57,909 nt of DNA from Candidatus Kaiserbacteria bacterium (GTDB lineage Bacteria > Patescibacteriota > Minisyncoccia > Phycocordibacterales > UBA918), in NCBI GenBank assembly GCA_043729945.1, contig JAYTKW010000022.1, forward strand, positions 1 to 57,909, written 5' to 3'. Positions 3,803-57,909 of the stretch are shown piece after piece. A model generated the notes under the pieces. It was not told where the DNA came from and did no database searches. It worked only from the letters and a program-made list of their open reading frames with translations. The stretch's first letter is position 1. Each line of letters starts with the position of its first letter. Made by a program: the position numbers and the translations under genes.

Positions 3803-3961
3803 TGATTACAATAGTAGCATTGTATTATGTACATGTAAAAATATGCTAATCAAACAGTGGAAGTTCCATCAGTGTGTAAAAAAGTTCTAACGTTGACCCA
3901 TAGCCCCGCACACATATGTTTCCGAAAAAGCCCTTTAAGGGGCTTTTTCGTTCGAAACATA

Positions 3962-5604: not shown

Positions 5605-5910
5605 GCAGTAAGTATATCATTTTCAGTAGTTGTAGAATCAAGTAAACGCCAATTAATAGTTCTAAATTCATCGAGTTTCTACATAGTCAATATGAAAAAC
5701 TGTCCCTAGGGACGTATTTCTGTTTTAATTGAAGATTCACAAAAATCATGTGACATATTTACACAGTTGGGTGGCACTGCGTTACACGTTACTCTCGAGA
5801 ACCCCACTACATATTACTTGCAGAATCTGGTTGACAAAATTCAATAGTTGCAAAATCACTGAGTAGTAACACTTGGATTGCTTCGTACCTCGCAATGACG
5901 TAGAGTTATC

Positions 5911-13806: not shown

Positions 13807-13996
13807 GCATTCAAAAACGGTGAATGAAGAAATGAGCGTAGCGATTATTTTGAATTTATGTCCCGATTTTTCCTCCTAAGGAAAATCGCTGGACCGGATT
13901 TCGTTGTTGCTCCTGTCGCTCAAACTCTCACCGTACAACAAGTACGGCTCAAGCTTTCGCTCGGGAGCGCCTAGAACTTTACTCGTTTTTGAATGC
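13807..13996. mobile_element. MITE-like long-palindrome element, full-length copy with 13-bp perfect terminal inverted repeats
   Basis: GCATTCAAAAACG (13807-13819) is the reverse complement of CGTTTTTGAATGC (13984-13996). The core is TCACCGTAC-AACAA-GTACGGCTCA at about 13928-13951. Confidence 0.6.
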
Positions 13997-14042
13997 CCTA
14001 ACTTTCTTTACTCCTAAAAATTATTGAAAATTAGCAATCTGG

Positions 14043-24790: not shown

Positions 24791-25420
24791 ATGTTTACGT
24801 TAGGTAACAACCGCACATTTAATTACTCAAGCGGCTTTACCTTGCTTGAGACGGTAGTCGTGATTGCAATTAATACCATTTTACTCGTGGTGATTACCGG
24901 TAGTATCGCGCAGATTTACAAAAACAATAGCTATACCTTTGAGCAATCCAATGAGATTGAGGCTGCCAGACGTAGTATCGGTATTTGGGTGCGCGATGCT
25001 AGAGAAATGACGTCAGCGGGAAACGGTTCGTATCCAGTTGCAATACTCGAAAATAATCGTATGGGTTTCTACAGTGATATTGATCGGGACCTGAATGTTG
25101 AATATGTGGAGTATACCCTTACGGGTACCACCTTAACAAAAAAAACGTATAACCCTGTCGGATATCCCTCTGTATATAGTACTACGACACCGGATACGAC
25201 TGAGACGCTTTCGTTGTACGTACAAAACGGTTTACAAAATACCCCCGTGTTCACCTACTACGATGCGGCAGGGGTGATACTCGCTTCTCCCTCGGCGATG
25301 TTGACTGACGCACGGTTCATTTCGATGAAAATTATTGTCAATATCGATCCGCAACGTTCCCCGGGTGAGTTTATGTTGCGGGCGAGTGCGGCGCCACGTA
25401 ACCTCAAAGACAACCTCTAG
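24791..25420 (+). CDS. Pseudopilin (prepilin-type N-terminal cleavage/methylation motif)
   Basis: SSGFTLLETVVVIAI motif; 209 aa. Confidence 0.75.
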   Translation: MFTLGNNRTFNYSSGFTLLETVVVIAINTILLVVITGSIAQIYKNNSYTFEQSNEIEAARRSIGIWVRDAREMTSAGNGSYPVAILENNRMGFYSDIDRDLNVEYVEYTLTGTTLTKKTYNPVGYPSVYSTTTPDTTETLSLYVQNGLQNTPVFTYYDAAGVILASPSAMLTDARFISMKIIVNIDPQRSPGEFMLRASAAPRNLKDNL

Positions 25421-25424
25421 CCTG

Positions 25425-25541
25425 ACTTCCACAAACGGCGAACTTCTTCGTTGCTGCTGCGGTAAATGAGTGTTCACCATACAGTAGTATGGCTTACTCT
25501 CATTTCCTTGCGCGCCTAGAATTTCACTCGTTTCTGAAAGT
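25425..25541. mobile_element. MITE-like long-palindrome element copy
   Basis: Imperfect TIRs ACTTCCACAAACGGCGAA / TTCACTCGTTTCTGAAAGT. The core is TTCACCATAC-AGTA-GTATGGCTTA, followed by GCGCCTAGAA. Confidence 0.6.
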
Positions 25542-25561
25542 CATATATAATAAATATAGTT

Positions 25562-27818: not shown

Positions 27819-28939
27819 TGTGTATGAAATCAATTGTTGATTGTCCGGAACTACGAGGAAAGTATGTCTTGGTGCGCTCATCGTGTAACGTGCCAGTCAC
27901 AGACGGAGTCGTACAAAATGCCTATCGGTTAAAACGAGCCCTTCCCACCCTCCAATTTTTACACGCTGCCGGCGCCCGCGTGATTGTAGTAGCCCACATT
28001 GGTCGTGACGAATCCGATACTCTGAAACCAGTCTACGAGGTTTTTTTGAATTTGATCGGGGTGCAGTGGGGAGGATCAATCGGGAGTGCCGAGTTTACCG
28101 CCGCTTTGTCTCGTTTGGCTGACGGAGACATTGTCATCGCCGAAAACCTCAGACAAGATCCCCGTGAAGTCGGTAACGACGCTGGATTTGCCGCAGAGCT
28201 TGCTGCGCTCGCTGATATCTACGTTGATGATGCCTTTGATAATATCCACCGGGACCACGCGTCGATGGTCGGTGTGCCAGCGCTCTTGCCTGCCTATGCC
28301 GGCATTACCCTCAAGGAAGAAGTGACCGAACTAACGAAAGCCATGGAACCAGCTTCCCCAGCCCTCCTCATTTTAGGTGGAGCTAAATTTGAAACTAAAA
28401 TGCCGCTCGTTGAAAAATATCTCGATTTGTATGATAACGTTTTTGTAACAGGGGCGCTCCTTAATGATATCCTCAAAGCCGAAGGACACGAGGTCGGGCA
28501 GTCACTCGTATCTGACATTTCACTCAAAGGTGCAGATTTCCTCTCGAGTGCGAAATTAATTCACGCCATTGATGTGGTAGTAACAAGCGACCGCGGTATG
28601 CGAACGGCGAGCATTGATGACGTCCAGTCTGACGAAAAAATTACCGACATGGGACCGCTCACGATTGGCGCCCTAGCCCCGTACATAAAAGACGCTGCCA
28701 CCATCCTCTGGAATGGACCGCTTGGACTCTATGAGTCTGGTGTCGCCGGAGGTACTCACGCCGTGGCGAAACTGATTGCTGACGCTCCAGGGTATAGTAT
28801 CATCGGCGGCGGGGACACCGTAGCCGCGATTGAAGATTTAGGGCTCAATGATCAGTTTGGGTTCGTCTCAATTGGTGGTGGCGCGATGCTTACCTTGCTC
28901 GAACATGGGACTACCCCCGCCCTCGAAGCCCTCGAGTAA
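27818..28939 (+). CDS. pgk: Phosphoglycerate kinase
   Basis: 373 aa with the PGK N- and C-domain pattern (GGAKF, GGGDT). The start overlaps the tpiA stop (TAATG). Confidence 0.88.
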   Translation: MCMKSIVDCPELRGKYVLVRSSCNVPVTDGVVQNAYRLKRALPTLQFLHAAGARVIVVAHIGRDESDTLKPVYEVFLNLIGVQWGGSIGSAEFTAALSRLADGDIVIAENLRQDPREVGNDAGFAAELAALADIYVDDAFDNIHRDHASMVGVPALLPAYAGITLKEEVTELTKAMEPASPALLILGGAKFETKMPLVEKYLDLYDNVFVTGALLNDILKAEGHEVGQSLVSDISLKGADFLSSAKLIHAIDVVVTSDRGMRTASIDDVQSDEKITDMGPLTIGALAPYIKDAATILWNGPLGLYESGVAGGTHAVAKLIADAPGYSIIGGGDTVAAIEDLGLNDQFGFVSIGGGAMLTLLEHGTTPALEALE

Positions 28940-28940
28940 A

Positions 28941-29230
28941 ACTTCCATAAACGGCGAACTTCGTCGTTGCCCGTCGGTAAAATACTCCTCACCGTGAGAA
29001 AGTCTGGGAGACTTTCGCAAGAGGTTGTCGCTCTTTTGAAAAAAAGAGCGACAACCTGAACAGCTTCTGTAAGAAGCGGAAAGTACGGCTCGTTCTATTT
29101 TCCTTTCTCCTCTGACAGCGGCTGTACACCTTGTCACTTATTTGTTTCGGTATTTACCTCACAAATAAGTAGGCAAGGTCTTGCGGAAGCTAGTCGCTTC
29201 CTCACTCGAATTTCACTCATTTCTGAAAGT
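28941..29230. mobile_element. MITE-like element copy carrying a nested second repeat type inside its central loop
   Basis: The termini (ACTTCCATAAACGGCGAAC / TTTCACTCATTTCTGAAAGT) match those of 25425-25541. The core CTCACCGT...GTACGGCTC is split by about 90 nt that is homologous to 47936-48030. Confidence 0.6.
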
Positions 29231-29282
29231 TCTAAGAGTCTAGAATAACAAAACTCGTTCGGTCTAACTGAGCGAGTTTTGT

Positions 29283-36321: not shown

Positions 36322-36404
36322 GCTAGGCGTGAAAATAAAATGATGCGAGCCGTACAGGTGTACGGTGAACAGCGTTTTGTGCATCACAACAACGCAATTC
36401 GCTA
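36322..36404 (-). repeat. MITE-family core copy (minus orientation)
   Basis: CTAGGCG...GAGCCGTAC-AGGT-GTACGGTGAA...CAACAACGC. Confidence 0.6.
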
Positions 36405-38155: not shown

Positions 38156-38230
38156 GCGTTGTTGCCCGGCACAAAATTTGTGTTCACCGTACGTTCAGTA
38201 CGGCTCACAAAAATTTGTTTGGGCGCCTAG
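38156..38230 (+). repeat. MITE-family core copy inside the rpsL-rpsG spacer
   Basis: GCGTTGTTG...TTCACCGTAC-GTTCA-GTACGGCTCA...GCGCCTAG. Confidence 0.65.
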
Positions 38231-38442: not shown

Positions 38443-38913
38443 ATGCGTCGACCAATTAAAAAGCGACCGGTTGTCAGTCCAGACGTTCAGTTTGGATCTG
38501 TCGATGTGGAACGCCTCATCAACTACGTGATGCTCCGCGGTCAGAAAGAAACCGCCCGTAAAATCGTTTACGGAGCGTTCGAAGAAATCAAGAACCGCAA
38601 AGACGGTGGTGAACCACTAGAAGTATTTACTACTGCTGTACGGAACGCCGGTCCCCTAATGGAAGTCCGCTCACGCCGCGTTGGTGGAGCCAACTACCAG
38701 GTACCACGCGAAGTTCGTCCTGAACGACGTCTAGCTCTAGCCCTCCGTTGGATCATCACCGGAGCCCGTAACCAAAAAGGTGTCCCAATGCACAAGGCAT
38801 TAGCTCAGGAGTTGATTCTTGCAGCCAAGGAAGAAGGAAATGCGGTCAAGAAGAAGGAGGATACGCATAAGATGGCTGAGGCCAACCGAGCCTTTGCCCA
38901 CTTCGCCTGGTAA
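38443..38913 (+). CDS. rpsG: 30S ribosomal protein S7
   Basis: 156 aa with a canonical S7 pattern (ANYQVP, ends HFAW). Confidence 0.93.
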
Positions 38914-38934: not shown

Positions 38935-39008
38935 CGCGTTGAAAGCCCCAAAATTTTGTTCACCGTACGTCCAGTACGGCTCACAAAATTTTGGGGCTTT
39001 CGCCTTGT
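38935..39008 (+). repeat. MITE-family core copy right after rpsG
   Basis: CGCGTTG...TTCACCGTAC-GTCCA-GTACGGCTCA...TTCGCCTTG. Confidence 0.6.
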
Positions 39009-39069
39009 CTCGTTTAGAAAATCTCAGTTACCAAACTAGGCCTAGGCAAGACCACTTCGATGGGTGCAC

Positions 39070-39114
39070 AAAAAAGCCGCTCTCCGTACGTCAGTACGTG
39101 TCGCGGCTTTTTTG
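39070..39114 (+). terminator. Terminator closing the rpsL-rpsG unit
   Basis: AAAAAGCCGC...GCGGCTTTTTT. Confidence 0.6.
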
Positions 39115-39195
39115 CTACCCGCCTCGCGACTCATTCAAATTTGAACGTTTCCAACAATTAATTGCAAAATTTTTATGTAAGAGCATAATCAATAT

Positions 39196-39894
39196 ATGCA
39201 AATATCTCCAGATTATTTTTTACGACCGTCTTTTGTTTTGGGCATATTTTCAGTTGTTGCACCGTACCTGATTTTAAGTGCACATAGTGCGACTTATGCT
39301 CACAAACTTGAACTCGCAAATCTATTTGTACAAATAGTAGTTGCTGTGTCTGCTGCCTTAGCTTTTTTAACTTATTATGAAAATAAAGAAGAAAAGAAAT
39401 TAAAATACGCAGTAGATTTGATTAGTTTTTTTCGGGAAAAAGTAATAAGCAAGCAGAACGAAATTACAAAGAAGGTTATTGAAGAACGAGGTGATAAGTA
39501 TGATATACCAAGGGTTGTTGCTTTCAGTCCTTATAAAATGACTATGGAATCAATCTTTTATAACCAAGAGATGAAGCAAGGATATATTGATTTTATAAAA
39601 ATAAAATCAATTATTAGTCCACAGACTAATTTACTAAATAGTCTAGACCAATTTGCTTTGTGTGTAAGAGTGTATGGCTTGACTGAACATCCATCACTAA
39701 TTTCATTACACGCAGTCTTTATTCAGATTGTTGAACAGGGCGGTATACAGAGAATTTTGCAACATAGAGTTATCGGAACGGGGGAAAATGTTTTTTCAGA
39801 AACACTGGATCTTTACGAATTATGGAAAAATAAAATTTCCAGAAAATCAGAAGATCAAAGAATTGCAGAATTTTTTAAAGAAAAAGAGACATAG
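39196..39894 (+). CDS. Hypothetical membrane-anchored protein in very AT-rich DNA
   Basis: 232-aa ORF with two N-terminal hydrophobic helices. No family recognised. Confidence 0.5.
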   Translation: MQISPDYFLRPSFVLGIFSVVAPYLILSAHSATYAHKLELANLFVQIVVAVSAALAFLTYYENKEEKKLKYAVDLISFFREKVISKQNEITKKVIEERGDKYDIPRVVAFSPYKMTMESIFYNQEMKQGYIDFIKIKSIISPQTNLLNSLDQFALCVRVYGLTEHPSLISLHAVFIQIVEQGGIQRILQHRVIGTGENVFSETLDLYELWKNKISRKSEDQRIAEFFKEKET

Positions 39895-39897
39895 ACG

Positions 39898-39930
39898 ACA
39901 AACCCTAAAAACTTTGCGGTGGGTTTGGGT
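39898..39930 (+). repeat. Array repeat B1 (ACAAACCCTAAAAAC...GGGTTTGGGT)
   Basis: 15 nt are identical to 40561-40575. Confidence 0.6.
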
Positions 39931-40080
39931 GTTGCTGTGCGGGAAACGTTTATCGTGGGTATAAAAAATTGTCGTACAGGGGGCCGAACGACAGTTCTGG
40001 GTTTTTGTTGACATTTTAGTGCCTGAGGTGTCTAATTGAAATTAGGAAGTTTAATCGAGGTTTCAACAGGAGAGAGCGAT

Positions 40081-40482
40081 ATGTCTTTTTCGGGTATTGG
40101 CCGAGCGGCCAATGAGTCCAATATGGTTGGGCGTGTAAATGCAGAAGCTGTAGGTCTTGAACTGTTGCTTCGGATAAGCAAGAATGCCGCGGCTGATGTT
40201 CAGGATTTTTGCGACAAGATTCGTGCGGCATCTTCGGTTCACGGTCAACAAGCTCTCAAACAGTGGGGAGCAGATTCGGCTAACTTTAAGCAATTGGCTG
40301 ACTGGATGAAATATATGGCCGGATGGCTTCAGCGGTGTGAGTTTTACGGCAAAATGCTCCTCTGGAACAATACCGATGAAGTGTATTTGCGGGGGGCGGC
40401 ATTGCATATGGCACTGCTTCAGACTTGGAATCAGGTAATTTCGTTGGCATTGGGGGATGTTGAGGTAGACAAGGCTGCGTGA
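40081..40482 (+). CDS. Hypothetical helical protein
   Basis: The SD AGGAGAG lies 7 nt before the ATG at 40081. A terminator hairpin at about 40498-40533 follows. Confidence 0.5.
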   Translation: MSFSGIGRAANESNMVGRVNAEAVGLELLLRISKNAAADVQDFCDKIRAASSVHGQQALKQWGADSANFKQLADWMKYMAGWLQRCEFYGKMLLWNNTDEVYLRGAALHMALLQTWNQVISLALGDVEVDKAA

Positions 40483-40560
40483 GTGAGACGATGGCTTGAA
40501 AAGGCCGCACCTCAACTCATGTGGCCTTTTTCAATTTTAAATTAAATATTGACCGAGTCA

Positions 40561-40593
40561 ACAAACCCTAAAAACGTGGGGTAGGTTTGGGGT
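40561..40593 (+). repeat. Array repeat B2
   Basis: ACAAACCCTAAAAACGTGGGGTAGGTTTGGGGT. Confidence 0.6.
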
Positions 40594-40616
40594 ACAGGAG
40601 GAAGACGTAGTCCGGG

Positions 40617-40659
40617 AGTATAAAAACACTGCCGTCCGGGTAACCGGGCGGCAGTTTTT
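40617..40659 (+). repeat. Array repeat C2 (GTATAAAAACACTGCCG... hairpin plus T-run)
   Basis: GTATAAAAACACTGCCGTCCGGG-TAA-CCGGGCGGCAGTTTTT. A near-identical copy lies at 41452-41494. Confidence 0.6.
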
Positions 40660-40704
40660 AATTCGAATTTATGAACCAAGATGTTTGTTAGTTGAAACTG
40701 GTGT

Positions 40705-40734
40705 AAGCTCCGCCTAGGACCGACCTAGGCAAAA
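40705..40734 (+). repeat. Cassette-junction repeat A1
   Basis: AAGCTCCG-CCTAGG-ACCGA-CCTAGG-CAAAA. Confidence 0.7.
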
Positions 40735-40830
40735 ATCCGCGTACCGCTAATAAATAGAAACGCCACCTCGGAAGATTGGCCAGAGTGGCGTTTCTTCGCT
40801 CAGTGGCGGGACATCGACACGACTTGATGT

Positions 40831-41238
40831 CTATGTGGCGTAGGTTCTGATGACCGCTTTTTCGAGCGGTGAATTGCGGGTTTCGTCGTCTTGCCAAAAT
40901 TTGTTTGGCAAAGTGAATGCAAAATCAAAACGAATACCGTCGCGGTGTGCGTCTTCAAACGCACGGTAGTGGGACATTTCGTAGAGATTACCGCTCATAT
41001 CCATCGCAAACCTGGTTGTATCAGGATCCGTTAGGAATTCAATTTCCTTGCTCGCCGGCTCCTGGTGTGGGTTCCATTGGTCAGGATTGATATAAATAAT
41101 CTTGGCATGACCTGAGCCGCGAAAATTGAAGTGCCAGATGAGAGAGTGAAGCAGTAAGCCAGTCGGCGAGAGTTCCGAGGTCCCCATGAGTTTAGTCCTT
41201 GTGCTGGTGAATCTGGACCAAAGATACGCCAATAACAA
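40831..41238 (-). CDS. Hypothetical protein
   Basis: 135-aa ORF (alternative start MGTSELS at 41187). A hairpin at 40757-40797 lies downstream. No family recognised. Confidence 0.45.
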   Translation of the reverse strand: MLLAYLWSRFTSTRTKLMGTSELSPTGLLLHSLIWHFNFRGSGHAKIIYINPDQWNPHQEPASKEIEFLTDPDTTRFAMDMSGNLYEMSHYRAFEDAHRDGIRFDFAFTLPNKFWQDDETRNSPLEKAVIRTYAT

Positions 41239-41407
41239 AAATTGTCAATCTGCTATTGTTACCCCAGATGGGGAGGGTGTGTACCATTGTTCTCCTACCG
41301 ATGTAGGCGAGGCCAAAGCCGTTGTTACTCCGTGAGGAGAAAGGACTAGATGTCCATTTGTACTTAATTATACAGTGTGTAGTAAAAGTATCAATCGTGT
41401 TATTTGA

Positions 41408-41435
41408 AAATCCGCCTAAACCTTACCTGGGCAAA
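41408..41435 (+). repeat. Cassette-junction repeat A2 (degenerate)
   Basis: AAATCCG-CCTAAA-CCTTA-CCTGGG-CAAA. Confidence 0.45.
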
Positions 41436-41451
41436 CGAAACGTAGCGCTGG

Positions 41452-41494
41452 GGTATAAAAACACTGCCGTCCCGGGGCCGGGGCGGCAGTTTTG
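41452..41494 (+). repeat. Array repeat C3
   Basis: GTATAAAAACACTGCCGTCCCGGGGCCGGGGCGGCAGTTTTG. Confidence 0.6.
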
Positions 41495-41509
41495 TTTTGG
41501 GGCGACATA

Positions 41510-41941
41510 TCATGATTGCCAGAGTTGTATGACTGAGCCAAATTGTTTAGTCAGGAACTTAGTGTGATGATCAAACTCCGGTTTGTCTTGATGTCTAAAC
41601 CAGCCAACCTGACTAATTTCCTGGGTATCGCTGATATGGACAGGTCCATACCAATCGACTGCTCTGATAATGACATGGCGCCAATATGTTCCAAATGGTG
41701 TTTGTCTGTCGTAGATGAGTATGATTTTTGCTTGCGTGAGCATTAGGCCCGTTTCTTCACGTAGTTCACGCCGCCCGGCCGCGAGATACGTTTCACCGTC
41801 CTCGACCTTACCACCAGGTATTTCATATTCATCATCCTGAATCAAACGCCGACTCTGTACACACAATAGGCGACGATTCTTTTCCACGATGACTCGAGCC
41901 ACCGTGCCAGTTACTCTCCGTAGCATGGTTTCCTCTCTCAA
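41510..41941 (-). CDS. NUDIX hydrolase
   Basis: Nudix box GGKVEDGETYLAAGRRELREETGL. Confidence 0.8.
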   Translation of the reverse strand: MREETMLRRVTGTVARVIVEKNRRLLCVQSRRLIQDDEYEIPGGKVEDGETYLAAGRRELREETGLMLTQAKIILIYDRQTPFGTYWRHVIIRAVDWYGPVHISDTQEISQVGWFRHQDKPEFDHHTKFLTKQFGSVIQLWQS

Positions 41942-42028
41942 CGTTTCGCAGCTACCGTATCATGTTCGGGTCGTTAATACAATTAAGTTTTGCCGAGGCC
42001 GTGCCCCGGCAGGTCAAAAGCCTGGGAG

Positions 42029-42090
42029 AAAGCTTCGTCTAGGGACGACTTAGGCCAAATAAAGCTCCGCCTAGGCCTTGCCTAGGCAAA
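42029..42090 (+). repeat. Cassette-junction repeats A3a+A3b (tandem pair)
   Basis: AAAGCTTCG-TCTAGG-GACGA-CTTAGG-CCAAA, then AAAGCTCCG-CCTAGG-CCTTG-CCTAGG-CAAA. Confidence 0.7.
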
Positions 42091-42156
42091 TTTAACTTTA
42101 TAGCGCTTGCATTTATACTATAATTTAGTACTATTATATAGTAATAACTAAATAAT

Positions 42157-42375
42157 ATGACCACTATCACTGTGCCTTTAAATACTAAGCAAATTGAACA
42201 CCTTGATGCACTTGTGGATGATTTTGGGTCCACTCGGGCGGGAGTGATGCGGAAGGCTTTAGAGCTGTTGGCTGAAGAAGCTGCCATTACATCTATTTTG
42301 AAGTCAGAACAAGAGTATCGTGAGGGCAAGGTATTGCGAGGAGATACTCGTAGTATTTTGCTGGGTCTTAAATAG
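42157..42375 (+). CDS. Ribbon-helix-helix antitoxin
   Basis: 72 aa with an N-terminal beta-strand plus helices (ITVPLNTKQIEHLDALV). It lies directly upstream of a RelE/ParE-like ORF. Confidence 0.6.
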   Translation: MTTITVPLNTKQIEHLDALVDDFGSTRAGVMRKALELLAEEAAITSILKSEQEYREGKVLRGDTRSILLGLK

Positions 42376-42382
42376 TAGCAAC

Positions 42383-42643
42383 ATGTTTGAAATTGTCATC
42401 TCAAAGCAATTCGCCCGACAATTTAGAAAATTTGATAATCACCTCAAAGAAGAAGTTGTCGAAAAACTGGAACTTTTAAAAAATCCAACTAATCACCAAT
42501 CATTAAAAGTGCATAAATTGAATGGTCGGTTGGCTAATAACTACAGTTTTTTTGTAAATTACAAGATACGAATAGTTTTTTCCTATCCTGTTCCGACAGA
42601 AATACTCCTGCTTTTAGTCGGCTCTCATGATGTTTATAACTAA
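42383..42643 (+). CDS. RelE/ParE-family toxin
   Basis: 86 aa with the pattern HKLNGRLANNYSFFVNYKIRIVF...VGSHDVY. Confidence 0.65.
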   Translation: MFEIVISKQFARQFRKFDNHLKEEVVEKLELLKNPTNHQSLKVHKLNGRLANNYSFFVNYKIRIVFSYPVPTEILLLLVGSHDVYN

Positions 42644-42650
42644 GATCTAA

Positions 42651-42695
42651 GATCCGATAGGCAAATAAGCTCCGACTAGGACTCTCCTAGGCAAA
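42651..42695 (+). repeat. Cassette-junction repeat A4 (partial copy plus full copy)
   Basis: GATCCGATAGGCAAAT, then AAGCTCCG-ACTAGG-ACTCT-CCTAGG-CAAAA. Confidence 0.7.
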
Positions 42696-42706
42696 AAGAG
42701 TAAGAG

Positions 42707-43090
42707 CTATATCCCTATTGTATCCAAACTAATTTCGATGGCGGTGCCGACTTGCGAGAGTATGGGTGCTGGAACTGCACCGAGGCGTTTTACTAATCGG
42801 GCTTTATCGATGGTACGAATTTGATTGAGAAGGACCAAGGAATTATTTTTTAGTCCGATGGTTGCGCTGGTCTTAATGAGGACTTCGGTGGGGTAGATTT
42901 TTTCCCCTGATATTGCGGTTGTAATGGCAGCTACGATAGTGACGGGGCTGTAGGTATTGGCGATATCATTTTGGATAATTAGAGCGGGGCGGGTTTTGTT
43001 TATTTCCGAACCAATCGTTGGGTCAAAATTAACGAGCCAAATCTCGCCACGCTTGGGCTTTTTTGTTTTGGTTACGGTTTGTTTTGCCAT
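42707..43090 (-). CDS. mazF: MazF/PemK-family endoribonuclease toxin
   Basis: RGEIWLVNFDPTIGSEINKTRPALIIQND is the canonical PemK motif. Confidence 0.8.
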   Translation of the reverse strand: MAKQTVTKTKKPKRGEIWLVNFDPTIGSEINKTRPALIIQNDIANTYSPVTIVAAITTAISGEKIYPTEVLIKTSATIGLKNNSLVLLNQIRTIDKARLVKRLGAVPAPILSQVGTAIEISLDTIGI

Positions 43091-43344
43091 ACTGATTCAT
43101 CAACATGAAACCACTGGGCGGCTATATCAGTATCACGATTAGTATTTCGCAAGGCACCTTCTTTAAGTGATTGTCGTAACTGTTTTTTTCCTACAGCATC
43201 AACATAAAAATGTACCGCCTGATCAATAAATCGACTGCGGTCACCTGGCTCGGTTAGCGCATCAATTTTTTCTAGGGTAGTTTCCGGAAGTGAGATGTTC
43301 ACTCTTTTATTGGCAGTTGTTGTAGTCATAACATAATCATACAC
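43072..43344 (-). CDS. RHH/CopG-like antitoxin paired with MazF
   Basis: Overlaps the mazF start by 19 nt. The RVNISLPETTLEKID...SRFIDQAV pattern is present. Confidence 0.6.
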   Translation of the reverse strand: MYDYVMTTTTANKRVNISLPETTLEKIDALTEPGDRSRFIDQAVHFYVDAVGKKQLRQSLKEGALRNTNRDTDIAAQWFHVDESVWQNKP

Positions 43345-43396
43345 ACGTTTTGTGTGTATGACAAGTCTTTGTACATATAACTCCGAAGGACCGACA

Positions 43397-43425
43397 AAGC
43401 TCCGCCTAGGACTCTCCTAGGCAAA
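43397..43425 (+). repeat. Cassette-junction repeat A5
   Basis: AAGCTCCG-CCTAGG-ACTCT-CCTAGG-CAAAC. Confidence 0.7.
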
Positions 43426-43461
43426 CCATAGTTAGAACAAAATCCTAAAAACCGCGGGATG

Positions 43462-43490
43462 GTATCTCCGAAGGCCGGGCCTTCGTAAGT
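43462..43490 (+). repeat. 29-nt repeat D1
   Basis: GTATCTCCGAAGGCCGGGCCTTCGTAAGT is identical to 44522-44550. Confidence 0.8.
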
Positions 43491-43827
43491 TTATAGTCAT
43501 GGGCCGGAAACTGTAAGCAGAATACATATACCGCGGTATACTAATTGAAAGATCATTGGGTCTTTTATTCACATTTTTAGAAAATGTGATTTTAGGATAA
43601 TACAATATAAATATATATGAATATGAAAATAAATACGGGGGGCCAAAATATTCCGCATAATCAGCCAATGCCTCGCAGGGTTGCGTCGCGGATGGAAGGG
43701 GTGGTGAAAAATCGCGGTACGCAGATGGTTAAGAAGCCAAAAGGGGGGTAGGGAATGAAATAAAAAAGCAGCGCTGAGGCGTTATGTAGTAAAGCTGAAA
43801 TTTGACATATATACCAAAATATATATT

Positions 43828-44124
43828 ATGGTATATATGGCTACACAAAATACGGCGACAATCTTAAATATTAAAACAGACAAGAAGCTCAAAGCTGAGG
43901 CTAAAAAAGTGGCTGATGATATGGGGCTTACGCTTACAGCGGTAGTTAATTCTATGCTCAAGCAGTTTGTTTTAGAAAAAGAAATCACTTTTTCGTCTAA
44001 AGTATATGAACCTTCACCGTATTTGATAAAAGCTCTCAAAGCTGCTGACGAAGAATATACGTTGGGGAAAGTTAAGAGGTTTTCTTCTGTAGAAGCGATG
44101 CAGGCTGATCTAATGAAAAAATAA
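43828..44124 (+). CDS. RelB/DinJ-family antitoxin
   Basis: ILNIKTDKKLKAEAKKVADDMGLTLTAVVNSMLKQFV. The alternative start at 43837 may be leaderless. The ATATACCA...TGGTATAT inverted repeat overlaps the promoter. Confidence 0.65.
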   Translation: MVYMATQNTATILNIKTDKKLKAEAKKVADDMGLTLTAVVNSMLKQFVLEKEITFSSKVYEPSPYLIKALKAADEEYTLGKVKRFSSVEAMQADLMKK

Positions 44125-44125
44125 T

Positions 44126-44389
44126 ATGGAAGTTGCGTACAGTAAAAGCTTTAAAAAAGATTTTGCTAAGATGCAAAAAAAAGCTCAAGAACAGTTTTTC
44201 GAGCGTCTCTCTTTGTATCTAGCAAGTCCGCAACACCTACTCTTGCATGTACATTCGCTTAATGGTGCATACCAAGGCTATCAAAGTTTTAATGTCACTG
44301 CCGATATACGAGCTATCTTTACTTTTCGTGATAATGGGGATGTTTTGTACGTAGACATGATCGGGACTCATTCCCAGTTGTATAAGTGA
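44126..44389 (+). CDS. RelE/YafQ-family toxin
   Basis: 87 aa with the pattern HSLNGAYQGYQSFNVTADIRAIF...IGTHSQLY. Confidence 0.7.
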   Translation: MEVAYSKSFKKDFAKMQKKAQEQFFERLSLYLASPQHLLLHVHSLNGAYQGYQSFNVTADIRAIFTFRDNGDVLYVDMIGTHSQLYK

Positions 44390-44433
44390 TTGATTACGCA
44401 TTAATTTTGAGGACCGACTTTCAAAAATGGTTT

Positions 44434-44517
44434 TTTATATATTCGCGCCGTCGAATTCGGTTACTTTGATTTGGGCGAGGTCGAAGTTTTCGAGACAATT
44501 GAGGTTGACTATGGTCA
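44434..44517 (-). pseudogene. Truncated fragment of a GFA-family gene (paralogue of 45899-46249)
   Basis: Encodes MTIVNLNCLENFDLAQIKVTEFDGANI*, compared with the C-terminus YMINLNCLEGFDLSNIKINDFDGASA* of the intact gene. Confidence 0.7.
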
Positions 44518-44521
44518 TGTA

Positions 44522-44550
44522 GTATCTCCGAAGGCCGGGCCTTCGTAAGT
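44522..44550 (+). repeat. 29-nt repeat D2
   Basis: Identical to 43462-43490. Confidence 0.8.
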
Positions 44551-44619
44551 CTTAAATTTATTTTTTACTTTCCTTTTAATTTTGGAGGCGATCCCTCAGG
44601 AAAGTGGAGGCCTTCATTC

Positions 44620-44649
44620 AAGCTCCGTCGAGGCGTCGCTTAGGCGAAA
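44620..44649 (+). repeat. Cassette-junction repeat A6 (diverged)
   Basis: AAGCTCCG-TCGAGG-CGTCG-CTTAGG-CGAAA. Confidence 0.5.
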
Positions 44650-44708
44650 TTGGGGTGAGCTTCCCAAGGGGGGATATTTGTGTATGATGGGCTGTAGATG
44701 AACAAATT

Positions 44709-45398
44709 ATGGATGCTAAATACTTAGTGTCCAGTAAAACAAGGAGAAGAGTTATGAAAGTGATTACTTGCGGAGCTGCCTTTGATCCCTCTCAAGAATG
44801 GTGGAAATCTGTTGCTAGCACAACAAATCATCAACAGTTGATGAGTGTTTTAAAAGAGGGGGAAAACTACCACGTGGCAATTATTGATAGCGTTGTTGGC
44901 GGGGTTTGTTTAACAAAGGAGCTATCGTGTTTTAAGCGAGAGGTGCCGCAAACTATTTTTTTCGTGCGGTTCATAGGTTTGTGTCCCGATGCCATCCTTA
45001 AGTCGCTGCTGACTTTAGGGATTGATGGATACCTCATGGATAGTCCTTCATTTGAAACTGTTCAAGGACTTTACTCCCTGCGGTCTAATATCTTGACTGT
45101 CAATCTGGCCGACGGAAAGCAATTGCTCCTGTCAGAAAAAACAATTTCGTGTGACCAGGCAAAAATAAGGGTTACAGCAACAGAAGCTTTACTTCTCAGA
45201 CGACTTATCTTGTCTCAAGGCCGGCCGGTCACTAGTAAAATGTTACAAGTTGTACTCGGATATAATTCGATTGCCCGAACCCAGACCGTACGTTCTCATA
45301 TTGAGAGAATTAGAAAGAGGGCCTATGAAGCCGGTTTTCCGAGCATCATCGGCACACAGCCAAAAGCAGGATACTACATTGAGTGTCCGGCCGCTTGA
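44709..45398 (+). CDS. OmpR/PhoB-type winged-helix DNA-binding protein with a degenerate receiver-like N-terminal domain
   Basis: The C-terminus is Trans_reg_C-like: TATEALLLRRL...TVRSHIERIRKRA...GYYIE. The N-terminal acidic pocket is not evident. Confidence 0.6.
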   Translation: MDAKYLVSSKTRRRVMKVITCGAAFDPSQEWWKSVASTTNHQQLMSVLKEGENYHVAIIDSVVGGVCLTKELSCFKREVPQTIFFVRFIGLCPDAILKSLLTLGIDGYLMDSPSFETVQGLYSLRSNILTVNLADGKQLLLSEKTISCDQAKIRVTATEALLLRRLILSQGRPVTSKMLQVVLGYNSIARTQTVRSHIERIRKRAYEAGFPSIIGTQPKAGYYIECPAA

Positions 45399-45404
45399 AG
45401 CAAC

Positions 45405-45440
45405 CTGAGGCAAGCCAGCCGGCTTGCCTCAGTTTCATTT
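45405..45440 (+). terminator. Terminator after the wHTH gene
   Basis: CTGAGGCAAGCC-AGCC-GGCTTGCCTCAG-TTTCATTTT. Confidence 0.65.
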
Positions 45441-45529
45441 TAAAGTTTGTTTTAACTCCATTGAGTCAAGAGTGGCTGTAGTTTAAGAATCTTGTGAATA
45501 CAACTACAGAAAGGATTTTTGGACAGAAC

Positions 45530-45874
45530 TTATTTGCCAGCCGTTTTATTTTTTTGTAATTGTATGTCTCCTGCCCGAATAATTGTAAACATAAGGTTAT
45601 TAATTGCGTTATATAATTCTCTTTCTGAGGTCTCTAAGATGAGTGAACTGTAATCAGGAGTGATAGCTTCTTGAATCAGTCGGATTTTCTCAATGGTATT
45701 ACTTTTATCGAGCTGTTCAGTAGGTGTCAAATTCGGAGTATTATTAGTAAGAAACTTGAATCGTTCTGGTTCTAGACAGCGGCGAGCAAATTCTAAATCT
45801 TCGGGATTACATTCTGCTTTTAAGCGTTCTTTTACAATCGGTCGTTCAAATCTATTTTTCATAATATCAATCAA
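45530..45874 (-). CDS. Hypothetical protein
   Basis: 114-aa ORF in AT-rich DNA. No family recognised. Confidence 0.4.
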   Translation of the reverse strand: MIDIMKNRFERPIVKERLKAECNPEDLEFARRCLEPERFKFLTNNTPNLTPTEQLDKSNTIEKIRLIQEAITPDYSSLILETSERELYNAINNLMFTIIRAGDIQLQKNKTAGK

Positions 45875-45898
45875 GTTAAAATCATTTATGTAATCAGC

Positions 45899-46249
45899 TT
45901 ATGCACTGGCGCCGTCGAAGTCGTTTATTTTAATATTTGAGAGATCAAAACCCTCGAGGCAGTTGAGGTTAATCATGTACATGTAATTACCGTTACCATC
46001 ATGACCGTATCCGTATGATTGAACACCACACGTTTTACAAAATGTGTGATTAATGTGGTGTTTGTTAAAGTGGTAAGTTGTCTGTGCATCAACACCACGT
46101 AGTAAAGTAAAATCAGTAACCGGCGCAAAAGCCAGTAAGAAGCCTTTGCGTTTACAATGTGAACAGTTACAGCGCATGGCTTCGGTAAATTCCCCGTTTA
46201 CGGTATATGCTACTGCGCCACAATGGCAACTGCCAGTATATGTTTTCAT
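45899..46249 (-). CDS. GFA-family (CENP-V/glutathione-dependent formaldehyde-activating-like) zinc protein
   Basis: CHCGAV and CNCSHC cysteine motifs; 116 aa. Confidence 0.75.
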   Translation of the reverse strand: MKTYTGSCHCGAVAYTVNGEFTEAMRCNCSHCKRKGFLLAFAPVTDFTLLRGVDAQTTYHFNKHHINHTFCKTCGVQSYGYGHDGNGNYMYMINLNCLEGFDLSNIKINDFDGASA

Positions 46250-46317
46250 AATTGCATCATATCATAAGTAAATATTATGTCAGTAAATTTGGTTATAGAA
46301 TTAGTCTGTATGTTAAG

Positions 46318-46755
46318 ATGAAACTAATGGAAAAGATGCCGAAAAAGGAAAAACGGGAGGTAATTTCACTCGTGGAGCAGAAGCGGGTAGAGGCTTTGAC
46401 GGCGGTGCTAGATGAGCTAGATACCCGTTTGCCCGCTGCACCAAAACGTTCGTTTGAATCAAATGGACGTGAGTACGCTCTGACATCGGCCGAAGACTGC
46501 ATGTTAGCTTTTGCTCAACAAAACCGCGAAGCCGTCTCTGCGCTTTATACTGAAATATTGTCGCGTGATGATTATCGGGCGGAACAGGCAATGGTAAAAC
46601 TTTTAAAGTTATTTGAAGCCTACGAGCGAACTGTGGCGCTTTATGCAGAATTAGTCAGCTACTATCCAACAGCGGCCGCACGCGTGACCGTAAAGCTCCC
46701 ACCATTGTCTGAAATCGCCCGTCATGGTGCCCGGATGTGGGACAATATTAAATAA
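46318..46755 (+). CDS. Hypothetical helical protein
   Basis: ORF trimmed to MKLMEKMPKKEK. No family recognised. Confidence 0.4.
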   Translation: MKLMEKMPKKEKREVISLVEQKRVEALTAVLDELDTRLPAAPKRSFESNGREYALTSAEDCMLAFAQQNREAVSALYTEILSRDDYRAEQAMVKLLKLFEAYERTVALYAELVSYYPTAAARVTVKLPPLSEIARHGARMWDNIK

Positions 46756-46795
46756 CATATCGTTGGTAATAAATTTGTAACTGTTCTTTTAAAAT

Positions 46796-47866
46796 ATGAC
46801 AATCGACTTTGATGCTGAAATTGTTGCTCACCTCGAGCAAGTTCGTCGGCTGCAAAAACCGTCGGGCGTTTTTACTGCCTCTGCCCATGATGTAGCCACT
46901 GGGTATGACAAAGCTTGGCTCCGGGATATTTACTTTATGACGCTAGGTTTCCTCGAAACTGGAGAAATTGAGGTGGTGCAAAAGGCTGCTCGAGCGCTGC
47001 TCGAAGTATTTGTTAAACACGAAGCCAAAATTAGTTGGGCGATTGAGTATCGTCCGCACGAAACCTGGCAGCGTATTCACGCTCGTTTTCATCCAGAAAC
47101 TTTTGAAGAATACTGGGAAGAGTGGGGAAATAGTCAGAATGATGCCGTGGGTGAGGTGTTAAATATTATCGTTGAACTAGAAATTCGTGGTGCCAGTGTT
47201 GTTGAAACGGCAGAAGAACAAGCGGTGGTGCAAAAAATTATTGACTATTTGGTGGCGCTCGAATATTGGCAAGATCCTGATAATGGTATTTGGGAAGAGA
47301 ACATGGAAGTGCACGCTTCGTCTGTGGGATCGTGTATTGCGGCACTCCAAAAAGCGGCGCAGATACCGTGGCTTATCGTCCCTGACGGCGCCATCACGCG
47401 CGGAGAGCAAGCACTGCGAGCGTTATTGCCCCGTGAATCAAAAAGTAAGTTTGCTGACCTGGCACTACTGTCCCTGATTTATCCTTTTGCTGTCACTACA
47501 CCAGAAGAAACAGAAACAATTTTACGGAACGTTGAATATCATCTGACCCGTGAGCGCGGCGTGATTCGTTATAAATTTGATCGCTATTATAATCAAAATG
47601 AAGACGGATACAGTGAAGAAGCCGAATGGTGCTTTGGTCTATCGTGGCTCGCGATTATTTATGCAGAGCGAGGGGAGAGTGAGAAAGCTTGGTACTATCT
47701 CCGTCGCGCTAAAATGACTGTCACCCCAGCCGGCCAGGTGCCTGAACTTTACTATTCTCATACTGACATTCCCAATGACAACACCCCATTGGGTTGGGCC
47801 GAGAGTATGTACGTTGTTGCTCTACAAAAAGTAAAATTATTGGAAGCAGAGTCGAATCGGAAATAA
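46796..47866 (+). CDS. Glycoside hydrolase family 15-like protein
   Basis: AWLRDIYF and GIWEENMEVHASSVG motifs; 356 aa. Confidence 0.6.
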   Translation: MTIDFDAEIVAHLEQVRRLQKPSGVFTASAHDVATGYDKAWLRDIYFMTLGFLETGEIEVVQKAARALLEVFVKHEAKISWAIEYRPHETWQRIHARFHPETFEEYWEEWGNSQNDAVGEVLNIIVELEIRGASVVETAEEQAVVQKIIDYLVALEYWQDPDNGIWEENMEVHASSVGSCIAALQKAAQIPWLIVPDGAITRGEQALRALLPRESKSKFADLALLSLIYPFAVTTPEETETILRNVEYHLTRERGVIRYKFDRYYNQNEDGYSEEAEWCFGLSWLAIIYAERGESEKAWYYLRRAKMTVTPAGQVPELYYSHTDIPNDNTPLGWAESMYVVALQKVKLLEAESNRK

Positions 47867-47893
47867 TTGCCGTACTCATACGTAGTAGTAAGT

Positions 47894-47935
47894 ATGACAA
47901 AAACAGCTATTTTCGCAGGAGGATGTTTCTGGGGT
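47894..47935 (+). repeat. Exact 42-nt duplicate of the msrA start (ATG plus 13 codons), running into a stop after 16 codons
   Basis: Identical to 48048-48089. Reads MTKTAIFAGGCFWGEQ*. Confidence 0.9.
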
Positions 47936-48047
47936 GAGCAGTGACTAAATGTCACTGCGCAAGAGGTTACCAGCTCGTTTGAAAAACGAGCGATAACCTG
48001 AACAGGTTCTGTAAGAACTGGAAGAGCTTGTAATGCAATAAAAATCT
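47936..48047. repeat. 112-nt repeat-type insert (same family as the nested segment at about 28995-29090)
   Basis: CGCAAGAGGTT..hairpin..AACCTGAACAGGTTCTGTAAGAACTGGAAG aligns with CGCAAGAGGTT..AACCTGAACAGCTTCTGTAAGAAGCGGAAAG. Confidence 0.7.
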
Positions 48048-48539
48048 ATGACAAAAACAGCTATTTTCGCAGGAGGATGTTTCTGGGGTATGGAAGACCT
48101 CTTTCGGGATCTCCATCCCGGCATCCTAACTACCGAAACGGGTTACACCGGTGGTACCAATGAAAACCCTACCTACGAAAATCATCCCGGCCATGCCGAA
48201 GCATTACTGGTGGAGTATGATGATGCAAAAATTGCGTACACAGAATTACTAGATTTCTTTTTCCGAGTGCATAATCCCACCACCCTTAATCAGCAAGGAA
48301 ACGACCTGGGCACGGCTTATCGTTCAGCGATTTTTTATCAAGATGAAAGCGAACGCGTAGCCGCTGAATTATTTATTGATCTGGTAAATGAATCAGCTCG
48401 TTGGGAGGCTCCTGTAGTCACCACGCTCGAACCGTTCACTAGATTCTGGTCAGCCGAAGACTATCACCAAGATTATTTACAAAAGAATCCACATGGATAT
48501 ACCTGCCACGCAATTCGATTTGAGAGCTATTTAGTGTAA
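48048..48539 (+). CDS. msrA: Peptide methionine (S)-sulfoxide reductase
   Basis: GGCFWG active-site motif; 163 aa. Confidence 0.9.
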   Translation: MTKTAIFAGGCFWGMEDLFRDLHPGILTTETGYTGGTNENPTYENHPGHAEALLVEYDDAKIAYTELLDFFFRVHNPTTLNQQGNDLGTAYRSAIFYQDESERVAAELFIDLVNESARWEAPVVTTLEPFTRFWSAEDYHQDYLQKNPHGYTCHAIRFESYLV

Positions 48540-53806: not shown

Positions 53807-53845
53807 CGACTGCGGTCGTTATTTTGTTCCTGATTCGTCCCAGGT

Positions 53846-54064
53846 TGGCTTCGACTGTATTCTTACTAACTCAAGAGTTGTCGTTCCAGAACTTTGTCCT
53901 AGGGAGGGACAAAGTTGGAACAAAGCAAAATCATACAACCTTTGGTCTATACATAAGACTGGGTGGCTTCGACTGTATTCTTACCAACTCAAGAGCTGTC
54001 GTTCCAGAACTTTGTCCTAGGGAGGGACAAAGTTGGAACAAAGCAAAATCATACAACCTTTGGT
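53846..54064 (+). repeat. Tandem direct repeat, 2 x 101 nt (99/101 identical) separated by 17 nt, each unit with a 16-bp bulged hairpin
   Basis: Units are at 53846-53946 and 53964-54064. The hairpin is GTTCCAGAACTTTGTCC-TAGGGAG-GGACAAAGTTGGAAC. Confidence 0.9.
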
Positions 54065-57789: not shown

Positions 57790-57909
57790 AAACGGTGAAT
57801 GAAGAAAAGGGCGCGTAAAACGTGACATCAAGTCACGTTTTACCTATTCTGAATTTATGTCCCGATTTTCTCTCTCCTAGAGAAAATCGCTGGACCGCAC
57901 TTCCTGCCT
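57790..57909. mobile_element. Left part of another MITE-family copy, cut by the window end
   Basis: AAACGGTGAATGAAGAAA...TGAATTTATGTCCCGATTTTC..GAAAATCGCTGGACCG parallels 13815-13898. Confidence 0.55.

Follow-up and report, generated by a model that had tools for sequence, protein, structure and literature searches.

We analysed a stretch of 57,909 nucleotides from a Candidatus Kaiserbacteria bacterium (contig JAYTKW010000022.1, assembly GCA_043729945.1; called the window throughout), in which one island of variable genes carries copies of a short hairpin-forming repeat, referred to here as the dyad. The island is bounded by rpsG (38443-38913) and a GH15 gene (46796-47866). As called on the source contig, the genes at the dyad array are hyp232, hyp133, hyp118 and NUDIX (the latter two on the minus strand), the toxin-antitoxin (TA) pairs TA1, TA2 (minus strand) and TA3, a fragment of a GFA-family gene and an OmpR-type winged helix-turn-helix (wHTH) gene. 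In related genomes the dyad accompanies a gene for a Y1 HUH transposase, and the relation between this repeat and this enzyme is our subject. The dyad unit is 29 nt long and reads AAGCTCCG-CCTAGG-N5-CCTAGG-CAAA. We found four intact or near-intact copies, four decayed copies and one half copy in the window, all on the plus strand (L numbers denote loci in related genomes):

40705-40733, plus strand: intact dyad, loop ACCGA, at the hyp133/hyp118 junction; 0 mismatches, -7.3 kcal/mol, z -3.9.
41407-41435, plus strand: decayed dyad at the hyp118/NUDIX junction; 5 mismatches, folding lost.
42030-42058, plus strand: decayed dyad in tandem with the copy at 42062; 4 mismatches.
42062-42090, plus strand: intact dyad, loop CCTTG, at the NUDIX/TA1 junction; 0 mismatches, -8.6 kcal/mol.
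42651-42666, plus strand: half dyad, consisting of loop and 3' arm (CCGATAGGCAAAT), stacked on the copy at 42667; read from the sequence.
42667-42695, plus strand: near-intact dyad, loop ACTCT, at the TA1/TA2 junction; 1 mismatch; left breakpoint of a MazEF indel.
43397-43425, plus strand: intact dyad, loop ACTCT, at the junction of TA2 and a spacer segment; 0 mismatches.
43766-43794, plus strand: decayed dyad directly 5' of the TA3 promoter; found by synteny with L004.
44620-44648, plus strand: decayed dyad at the junction of the GFA fragment and the wHTH gene; 4 mismatches, folding lost.

A search for the core AAGCTCCGCCTAGG-N5-CCTAGGCAAA with at most one mismatch returned four copies, on the plus strand only, at 40705, 42062, 42667 and 43397, while the count expected from 100 shuffled sequences was 0. 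A de novo repeat search grouped six dyad copies as one family (D1), and a fuzzy search yielded the decayed dyads at 41407, 42030 and 44620 (4-5 mismatches). The copy at 43766-43794 matches a recognisable dyad at positions 35-63 of L004, which lies inside a conserved block (L004rc 7781-8000, window 43609-43827), and stacked half dyads also occur in L004, L005, L008 and L024. Neither the exact nor the fuzzy search found a dyad outside 40.7-44.7 kb of the 57.9-kb window, and 7 of the 13 CCTAGG hexamers in the window belong to dyads. Every window dyad is intergenic by the gene calls of the source contig. An earlier note on this stretch, made from the sequence alone, had described eight copies, all on the plus strand; the repeat, its strand and its coordinates (correct within 1 nt) are borne out, and the count is amended to that given above. 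Our data agree with the note that the dyads are junction elements between genes whose orientation is independent of gene orientation, and the scatter without relation to gene boundaries that it had named as the contrary outcome is not seen within the window. We also agree that the dyads are not simple terminators: no T-run follows them, and the true terminators are adjacent GTATAAAAAC hairpins.

The dyad arms GCCTAGG and CCTAGGC pair, and when folded as single-stranded DNA (ssDNA) the four good copies form a stem of 7-8 bp at -4.5 to -8.6 kcal/mol. The three perfect dyads reach -7.3 to -8.6 kcal/mol with z about -3.9 (-3.8 to -3.95), the one-mismatch dyad has -4.5 kcal/mol with z -2.4, and the decayed dyads have lost hairpin folding. 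In an Rfam scan of the window, a tRNA was the sole match and no known RNA family fell at the dyads.

We scanned genomes (exact dyad pattern, one genome per species) and, separately, metagenomes and a viral collection for the dyad. The genome scan placed it in eight stretches of six metagenome-assembled genomes (MAGs), all Patescibacteria, and the metagenome scan added 12 loci, giving a total of 20 independent loci of the candidate phyla radiation (CPR), from Kaiserbacteria and other Patescibacteria. None of the 2.9 million viral contigs scanned contained the dyad, and a phage origin was rejected on this ground. Each locus carries 1-6 dyads, always on a single strand, and there are only 1-2 contigs with perfect dyads per MAG, with no closed genome among these MAGs. 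The top strand of the dyad is the G-rich strand in 15 of the 18 loci with measurable skew (p = 0.004), and GC skew in the window is positive in 13 of 14 4-kb bins, including the stretch where the genes run the opposite way. One of these loci, L001, holds a repeated unit of about 150 nt (772-927 and 1514-1660) that consists of an upstream segment, a terminator hairpin and the dyad, which indicates that the sequence co-amplified with the dyad is lineage-specific.

In relatives, the dyad brackets a gene for a protein of about 220 aa with a Pfam match to Y1_Tnp (PF01797). In L002 a dyad lies 57 nt upstream of the 222-aa gene and three dyads follow directly after it, the first of which encodes the last codons. 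Using tblastn with the L002 protein, we found a homologue beside the dyad in L003, L008, L018, L020 and L024. In L002, L003, L008, L018, L020 and L024 a dyad precedes the gene by 55-80 nt, and a second dyad lies at or over the stop codon of the gene in L002, L003, L008, L018 and L024; in L020, where the sequence ends inside the gene, the upstream dyad only was recovered. The same bracket surrounds the gene in L032 and L033, two loci looked up via the protein and not via the dyad. The sole NCBIfam match of the protein, below the cut-off of that model, is the REP-associated tyrosine transposase (RAYT; NF047646), where REP stands for repetitive extragenic palindrome, and some JGI records label homologues as 'REP element-mobilizing transposase RayT'. 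The family comprises 4,076 homologues at E <= 1e-5, and the HUH motif H82-F-H84 and the residues Y135/Y138/Y142 on the helix after it are invariant across 33 homologues. Using Foldseek with an AlphaFold model of the protein (pLDDT 82), we found that the best PDB match (E 4e-5) is 4er8_A, a structure of the E. coli RAYT in complex with a REP hairpin. The next transposase folds are the TnpA proteins of IS608 and ISDra2, with Thg1 chains ranking between, and the CPR protein carries a C-terminal helical extension of about 70 aa.

We considered whether the dyads might instead be a double-stranded operator or insulator to which a dimeric regulator binds, be it the wHTH protein or an antitoxin of a TA pair, or else an RNA stabiliser or terminator. 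Two palindromic hexamers 11 bp apart would suit such a role, as would the position of the dyads next to promoters and terminators and the fusion of the dyad to a terminator hairpin in many relatives. However, the genes next to dyads are unrelated from one lineage to another, the Y1 transposase gene is the only one that is consistently bracketed, and the conserved asymmetric flanks and the single orientation, whatever the direction of the genes, speak against a symmetric operator as well as against an element of the transcript. There is also no T-run after the dyad itself, and the wHTH protein, which the earlier note had put forward as a candidate binder, has no homologue near dyads elsewhere. 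We regard a role of this kind as highly improbable.

RAYT homologues of 58-84% identity share one syntenic site in divergent genomes of CPR bacteria of the Kaiserbacteria/Paceibacteria type, where the gene order is RecA, FtsK, PG_binding surface protein, RAYT, variable genes, DUF1360, rplJ and rplL, and each recovered locus contains a single copy per RAYT type. Judged by these features of sequence (fixed syntenic site, single copy, 58-84% identity), the RAYT gene is domesticated. The hairpin changes with the enzyme. RAYTs that are at least 69% identical are found with GCCTAGG-N5-CCTAGGC, the 60% identical RAYT of L036 with CCCTAGG-N5-CCTAGGG as inverted doublets, and the 58% identical RAYT of L034 is flanked by a CCATAGGCCGGGCC palindrome, while a second RAYT in L003 (49% identical) has its own CACAGGCAAGACCTGTTCAA palindrome. 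L003 is a 6.5-kb Kaiserbacteria MAG contig on which the two paralogues (3191-3841 and 5612-6265, 49% identical) are each bracketed by their own palindrome family, with BrnT/BrnA and MazEF modules between them. More widely, in L003, L007, L008, L022 and L026 a TA pair of the BrnT/BrnA type comes after the RAYT or after the place where the RAYT usually lies, and a solitary PemK-like gene often precedes it (L001, L024, L026, L028), so that the REPtron carries a recurrent set of TA modules. In LNFM01001765.1 (L020 1699-1894/L026), a unit of dyad and RAYT is located within a DUF1360 gene of which 55 aa are left, and the usual RAYT site, behind the gene for the surface protein, is occupied only by PemK-like and BrnTA modules with dyads on their flanks, which suggests that this RAYT unit has itself moved.

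A Y1 gene with hairpins on both sides on one strand, a Pfam Y1_Tnp match and a dyad-RAYT unit at a non-canonical site in one genome are also what a mobile insertion sequence (IS) of the IS200/IS605 type would present, in which case the hairpins would be IS ends and the solo dyads miniature non-autonomous derivatives (PATE/MITE-like). This is improbable in our judgement, since copies of 58-84% identity occupy the same syntenic position, no more than a single copy per RAYT type was recovered from any locus, the two paralogues that share a locus each have their own hairpin family, and a search of the Pfam lists of the RAYT loci gave no TnpB partner. A fixed single copy, a hairpin family per paralogue and their co-variation are hallmarks of domesticated RAYTs and their REPs, not of IS (PMC5581495; PMC6006769).

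We consider it likely that the dyads are a REP-type hairpin family whose cognate enzyme is a domesticated Y1 HUH transposase (RAYT/TnpA-REP-like), and that they have colonised a TA hotspot, because the RAYT gene is bracketed by the dyad, its predicted fold matches 4er8, its synteny is fixed and its hairpin co-varies with it. By the marks that define REPs, the dyad is a 29-nt stem-loop repeat and is extragenic (in relatives, except for the copies that overlap the last RAYT codons). The associated protein has the Y1 HUH motif, the tyrosine and the RAYT fold, and its gene is single-copy and vertically inherited with a co-varying hairpin. The repeat flanks the RAYT gene in the relatives L002, L003, L008, L018, L024, L032 and L033, not in the window.

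Prior work has established that Y1 HUH transposases recognise folded hairpins in a strand-specific manner with the help of a guide sequence, form a 5'-phosphotyrosine intermediate and prefer the lagging-strand template (PMC3333891). By analogy, the RAYT would recognise the folded dyad and its asymmetric flanks (5' AAGCTCCG, 3' CAAA) on ssDNA, most likely on the lagging-strand template, and each locus would keep one orientation because that template is the proposed target. The enzyme may cut and rejoin nearby, so that copies spread, vary and amplify locally into tandem and half copies, and its action would provoke deletions and insertions adjoining the dyads. In this way the hairpins could have colonised the junctions of the hypervariable TA-rich island in the rpsG/GH15 hotspot. 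Differences in gene content would often end at dyads because the dyads are recombination-prone repeats, and the window array would now be sedentary, with half of its copies decayed. The DNA-binding or recombinase partner that the earlier note had called for would then be a protein encoded elsewhere, of the Y1 HUH (RAYT) type, and not the tyrosine or serine recombinase it had also suggested, of which we found none among the open reading frames (ORFs) of the window or beside the dyad in the 20 related loci.

Several observations weigh against this assignment. A tblastn search found no Y1/RAYT gene in the 58-kb window; we infer that the source genome carries one elsewhere from a close relative, MAG JAYVIL01, which has both the L003 RAYT locus and the L004 rpsG island. 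Another RAYT near dyads, of the L007 type, is 25% identical, and comparison with the close relative L001 shows it inserted in a PemK-like gene, with no dyads on its flanks; we set it aside as a dyad partner, since it is probably not cognate. The NF047646 scores (30.6, 41.7 and 61.9 bits against a cut-off of 80) place the CPR proteins outside curated RAYT membership, PDB sequence searches, run with one RAYT sequence and with a seven-sequence profile, returned no RAYT or IS200 structure, and sequence similarity to characterised RAYTs is weak. The 5' flank AAGCTCCG has no GT[AG]G foot (no GTAG or GTGG). The dyads are singletons or direct tandems and not inverted pairs of the REPIN or BIME kind, with inverted doublets in L036 only. 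Their number is apparently low, with eight copies in 4 kb of 58 and one or two islands per genome. Finally, one relative varies at the S7/GH15 hotspot although it has no dyads (L031), and the dyads may therefore be passengers rather than drivers of hotspot variability.

The rpsG/GH15 island sits in a shared backbone of SOD, MBL, L28, M50, S12, S7, the island, GH15, Gmad2 and ABC. Backbone homology with L005, L030 and L031 stops at about 39032 and restarts at about 46792. The island measures 7.8 kb in the window, 2.2 kb in L030 (other genes) and 1.1 kb in L031 (other genes, no dyads), and L029, in which S7 is followed by a MliC/Gmad2-domain gene and then EF-G, has no comparable island. The S7/GH15 hotspot varies in the dyad-free L031 too, and its variability thus does not require dyads. 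The closest genomes, L004 and L005 (S7 92% identical), have TA1 and TA3 in common with the window at 80-85% nucleotide identity and are without the segment from hyp232 through NUDIX and without TA2. The MazEF module (42696-43396), which has a dyad on each side in the window, is missing from both of these syntenic Kaiserbacteria, where one or more dyads come straight after TA1 and TA3 comes next; in L005, stacked half dyads and a full dyad stand behind TA1, with the TA3 promoter immediately after them. TA1 homology with L005 and L004 begins 9-16 nt past the dyad at 42062, homology with L005 stops at 42682 inside the dyad at 42667, and the TA3 homology block begins just past the decayed dyad at 43766. 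At the junction before TA1 there are two dyads in the window, about four in L004 and about five in L005, with stacked half copies that stop in the loop, the next copy starting exactly at AAGCTCCG. Truncation exactly at a dyad is seen for DUF1360 in L020 and for a second HigB-like copy in L005. Within the source population (several BUSI22-1 samples and Logan runs, looked up with MazF, the TA1 toxin, YafQ and the wHTH protein as queries), gene order is identical in every contig. Short contigs there break at dyads, and the short-read contigs L009, L014 and L015 begin or stop at the dyad at 43397.

These comparisons bear on another explanation, that the RAYT moves whole modules as single-stranded circles in a hairpin-delimited cassette system, an integron analogue with an HUH enzyme, of which the window array would be a satellite resembling CALINs (clusters of attC sites lacking integron-integrases). 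Several findings speak for it: the dyad-flanked MazEF module of the window, in place of which L004 and L005 keep a single dyad region; alternative blocks that distinguish the close relatives L001 and L007 and have a dyad as their right boundary; the recurrence of dyad, TA or small gene, and dyad in the RAYT islands of L001, L003, L022, L024, L026 and L028; the dyad-RAYT unit that truncates DUF1360 in LNFM01001765.1; and the ability of E. coli TnpA-REP to excise and rejoin ssDNA between its sites in vitro (PMC3333891). We nevertheless think it unlikely. We saw no cassette in two different places whose homology stopped at dyads; the two islands compared share only distant homologues, with TA families 29-55% identical, and MazEF runs antiparallel to the dyads in the window and parallel to them in L003. 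Homologous recombination between direct repeats explains the dyad-flanked deletion equally well. Several breakpoints are away from dyads (window 43609 against L004; L001 1469 against L007 2486), some junctions lack a dyad (TA3/NUDIX-like gene in L005), the array is invariant in all source-population contigs, and the L031 hotspot varies without dyads. The cassette gain and loss for which the earlier note had proposed a check is seen as module-sized differences between relatives, several with breakpoints at dyads, and not within the source population.

In a related formulation, a domesticated HUH Y1 transposase would service sedentary arrays of TA and small genes, with the 29-nt hairpins as ssDNA recombination sites on the lagging-strand template, a proposal that we hold to be doubtful. 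Its corollary, that the transposase gene itself is also excised, inserted or deleted at the hairpins, is to be doubted to the same degree. The integron-like identity that the earlier note had suggested did not hold up, since the window encodes no integrase or recombinase, the 29-nt hairpins are unlike attC and the modules have their own promoters. Integrons and CALINs were accordingly rejected, with no IntI or integrase family among the scanned window ORFs or the Pfam lists of related loci and no attC-like sites.

The window contains further genes and accessory repeats around the dyads:

39033-46795, strand not assigned: variable island with hyp232, hyp133, hyp118, NUDIX, TA1-3, wHTH, hyp110, GFA and hyp145.
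42157-42643, plus strand: TA1, a 72-aa antitoxin and HigB-like toxin with its own promoter (42097-42124); conserved in L004 and L005.
42707-43329, minus strand: TA2, a MazF/PemK toxin and RHH antitoxin; absent from L004 and L005.
43837-44389, plus strand: TA3 (RelB/YafQ) with promoter 43802-43829; conserved in L005.
44435-44521, minus strand: C-terminal fragment of a GFA-family gene, 71% identical to 45899-45985 (repeat family D3).
39897-39930, plus strand: ACAAACCCTAAAAAC..GGGTTTGGG module, copy 1 (D8, 39872-39930).
40562-40595, plus strand: ACAAACCCTAAAAAC..GGGTTTGGG module, copy 2 (D8, 40535-40593).
40619-40659, plus strand: intrinsic terminator of A-tract, 12-bp hairpin and T-tract (GTATAAAAAC; D9); the strongest terminator-like site.
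41454-41494, plus strand: second terminator copy with changed stem (D9; 83% identity).
43462-43490, plus strand: 29-nt exact repeat, copy 1 (D19); hairpin CGAAGGCC-G-GGCCTTCG, -7.0 kcal/mol, z -3.6.
44522-44550, plus strand: 29-nt exact repeat, copy 2 (D19 and D3); abuts the truncation point of the GFA fragment.

The GFA fragment, the truncated gene that the earlier note had seen, is a recombination scar; it ends at the 29-nt repeat, and an intact GFA-family gene at 45899-46249 matches PF04828. The wHTH gene (44709-45398) most likely starts at 44754, where there is an AAGGAG ribosome-binding site, and its 214-aa product is the only one in public assemblies. Among the accessory repeats, both the ACAAACCCTAAAAAC..GGGTTTGGG module and the GTATAAAAAC-hairpin-TTTT element had been counted three times: we recovered two copies of each, with a weak third copy of the module at 43436 and no confirmed third terminator. 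The two GTATAAAAAC hairpins (40628-40655 and 41463-41490) are the two strongest terminator-like sites of the region. In L002, L003, L008, L020, L026, L028 and L032 the dyad has a 3' extension, GGCAAA-CCCTTTAAAAC-hairpin-T run, and the window ACAAACCCTAAAAAC..GGGTTTGGG modules are, from their sequence, most likely remnants of this extension. The 29-nt exact repeat is present twice, as the note had stated. Its core resembles the hairpin that flanks the 58%-identical RAYT in L034, and it is probably a second REP-like family.

A further hairpin-repeat family, TCACCGTAC-N4-6-GTACGGCTCA, lies at 38169-38217, 38941-39001, 13928-13951 and 36360-36390 (inverted); two of these places follow rpsL and rpsG directly, and the other two are intergenic as well. 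These hairpins sit within long palindromes (28-nt arms, 89% complementary), and L005 and L030 have conserved the one that follows rpsG. The family could be one more kind of REP, or else a terminator or regulatory structure that is conserved. Most public contigs with close rpsG homologues are only 0.6-2.5 kb long, which suggests that the repeats on the flanks of rpsL and rpsG are routine break points in assemblies of the clade. A repeat of about 130 nt that resembles a MITE (a miniature transposable element with inverted repeats) occupies intergenic positions at 13873-14000, 25414-25545, 28930-29234 and 57845-57903 and holds a CACCGTAC..GTACGGCT core that is the same as the core of the TCACCGTAC/GTACGGCTCA family. 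Its 3' part, GCGCCTAGAAYTTYACTC, is only weakly similar to the dyad, agreeing with the 5' half at about 12 of 16 nt. The possibility that the dyads are fragments of such repeats, raised by the earlier note as an outcome that would undo its case, was rejected, since alignment shows a different element. Elsewhere in the window, an exact 43-nt direct repeat (47893-47935 and 48047-48089) is a duplication of the msrA 5' end, covering the ribosome-binding region and 14 codons from the start, placed 154 nt upstream of where msrA really begins, and a 104-nt tandem duplication (97%) lies at the start of a META-domain gene (53843-53946 and 53961-54064).

The role of RAYTs and REPs in their hosts has been a standing question since 2010, and CPR bacteria are usually described as having very small, streamlined genomes. 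Our data indicate that a RAYT-like gene is kept at one fixed locus across deeply divergent CPR members, and that its dyads appear confined to one or two hypervariable TA islands near ribosomal-protein operons instead of being scattered by the hundreds. Such a compact and tractable system could tie RAYT activity to the structure and turnover of accessory-gene arrays. It would also extend the definition of REPs past GTAG-footed elements, and the dyad is a repeat that fragments CPR assemblies. If whole modules were moved between hairpins, this would be a second, mechanistically independent form of gene-cassette capture, an integron-like platform with different chemistry; if the transposase services the arrays, RAYTs would have a host-level function.

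Several known systems share features with the dyads. Integrons and CALINs likewise contain small, often TA-encoding modules separated by same-orientation structured repeats that, as the dyads may by analogy, act as folded single strands, and relatives differ by whole modules. They are unlike the CPR arrays in that the latter have no IntI, contain modules with their own promoters and in mixed orientations, gave no relocated cassette, and have a perfect 29-nt hairpin in place of an attC of 57-141 nt with R/L boxes, extrahelical bases and a GTTRRRY core. IS200/IS605 elements (IS608, ISDra2) resemble the CPR system in their subterminal hairpins on one strand, in the structural match to TnpA and, by analogy, in a presumed Y1 HUH chemistry and a strand-specific mechanism linked to the lagging-strand template. 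They differ in that the CPR gene is not multi-copy or mobile as a rule, comes without TnpB, has no distinct left and right ends and is outnumbered by solo hairpins. The TnpA-REP/prochlorosin clusters of picocyanobacteria also combine a RAYT-family gene with arrays of small, diversifying genes in streamlined genomes, and a role in diversifying recombination was proposed for them, the causal claim being withdrawn by the authors (bioRxiv 10.1101/2020.03.09.984088). Those RAYTs belong to subclass 2.1, with many copies and fragments, and the cargo is different.

The closest likeness is to the REP/RAYT systems of E. coli, Pseudomonas and Stenotrophomonas, where a single-copy gene for a Y1 HUH transposase lies between copies of a short extragenic hairpin repeat and is passed on vertically at one fixed locus, every RAYT paralogue comes with a hairpin family that co-varies with it, and there is local tandem amplification with variant copies; the CPR fold matches 4er8. 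On the other side, the dyad lacks the 5' GT[AG]G foot and has a perfect rather than mismatched stem, dyads are unidirectional singletons or direct tandems instead of inverted REPINs or BIMEs (except L036), and the CPR protein has a C-terminal helical extension of about 70 aa and falls below the NCBIfam RAYT cut-off. Classical REPs number hundreds of dispersed copies, whereas dyads apparently number tens in one or two TA-rich islands. A search for literature that links REPs with Patescibacteria gave no such link in the top-ranked papers, and the published classification of TnpA-Y1 proteins (Quentin et al. 2018, PMC6006769) does not name CPR taxa in its main text. REPs without GTAG do have precedents there, in TnpA-Y1 subclass 2.6 and in class 3. 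These groups come from Bacteroidetes or from Planctomycetes and Acidobacteria, and their arrangement, like that of the dyads and their RAYT, is REPtron-like rather than IS-like. The dyad/RAYT system of CPR bacteria is likely a variant of the REP/RAYT kind and not a new category of system.

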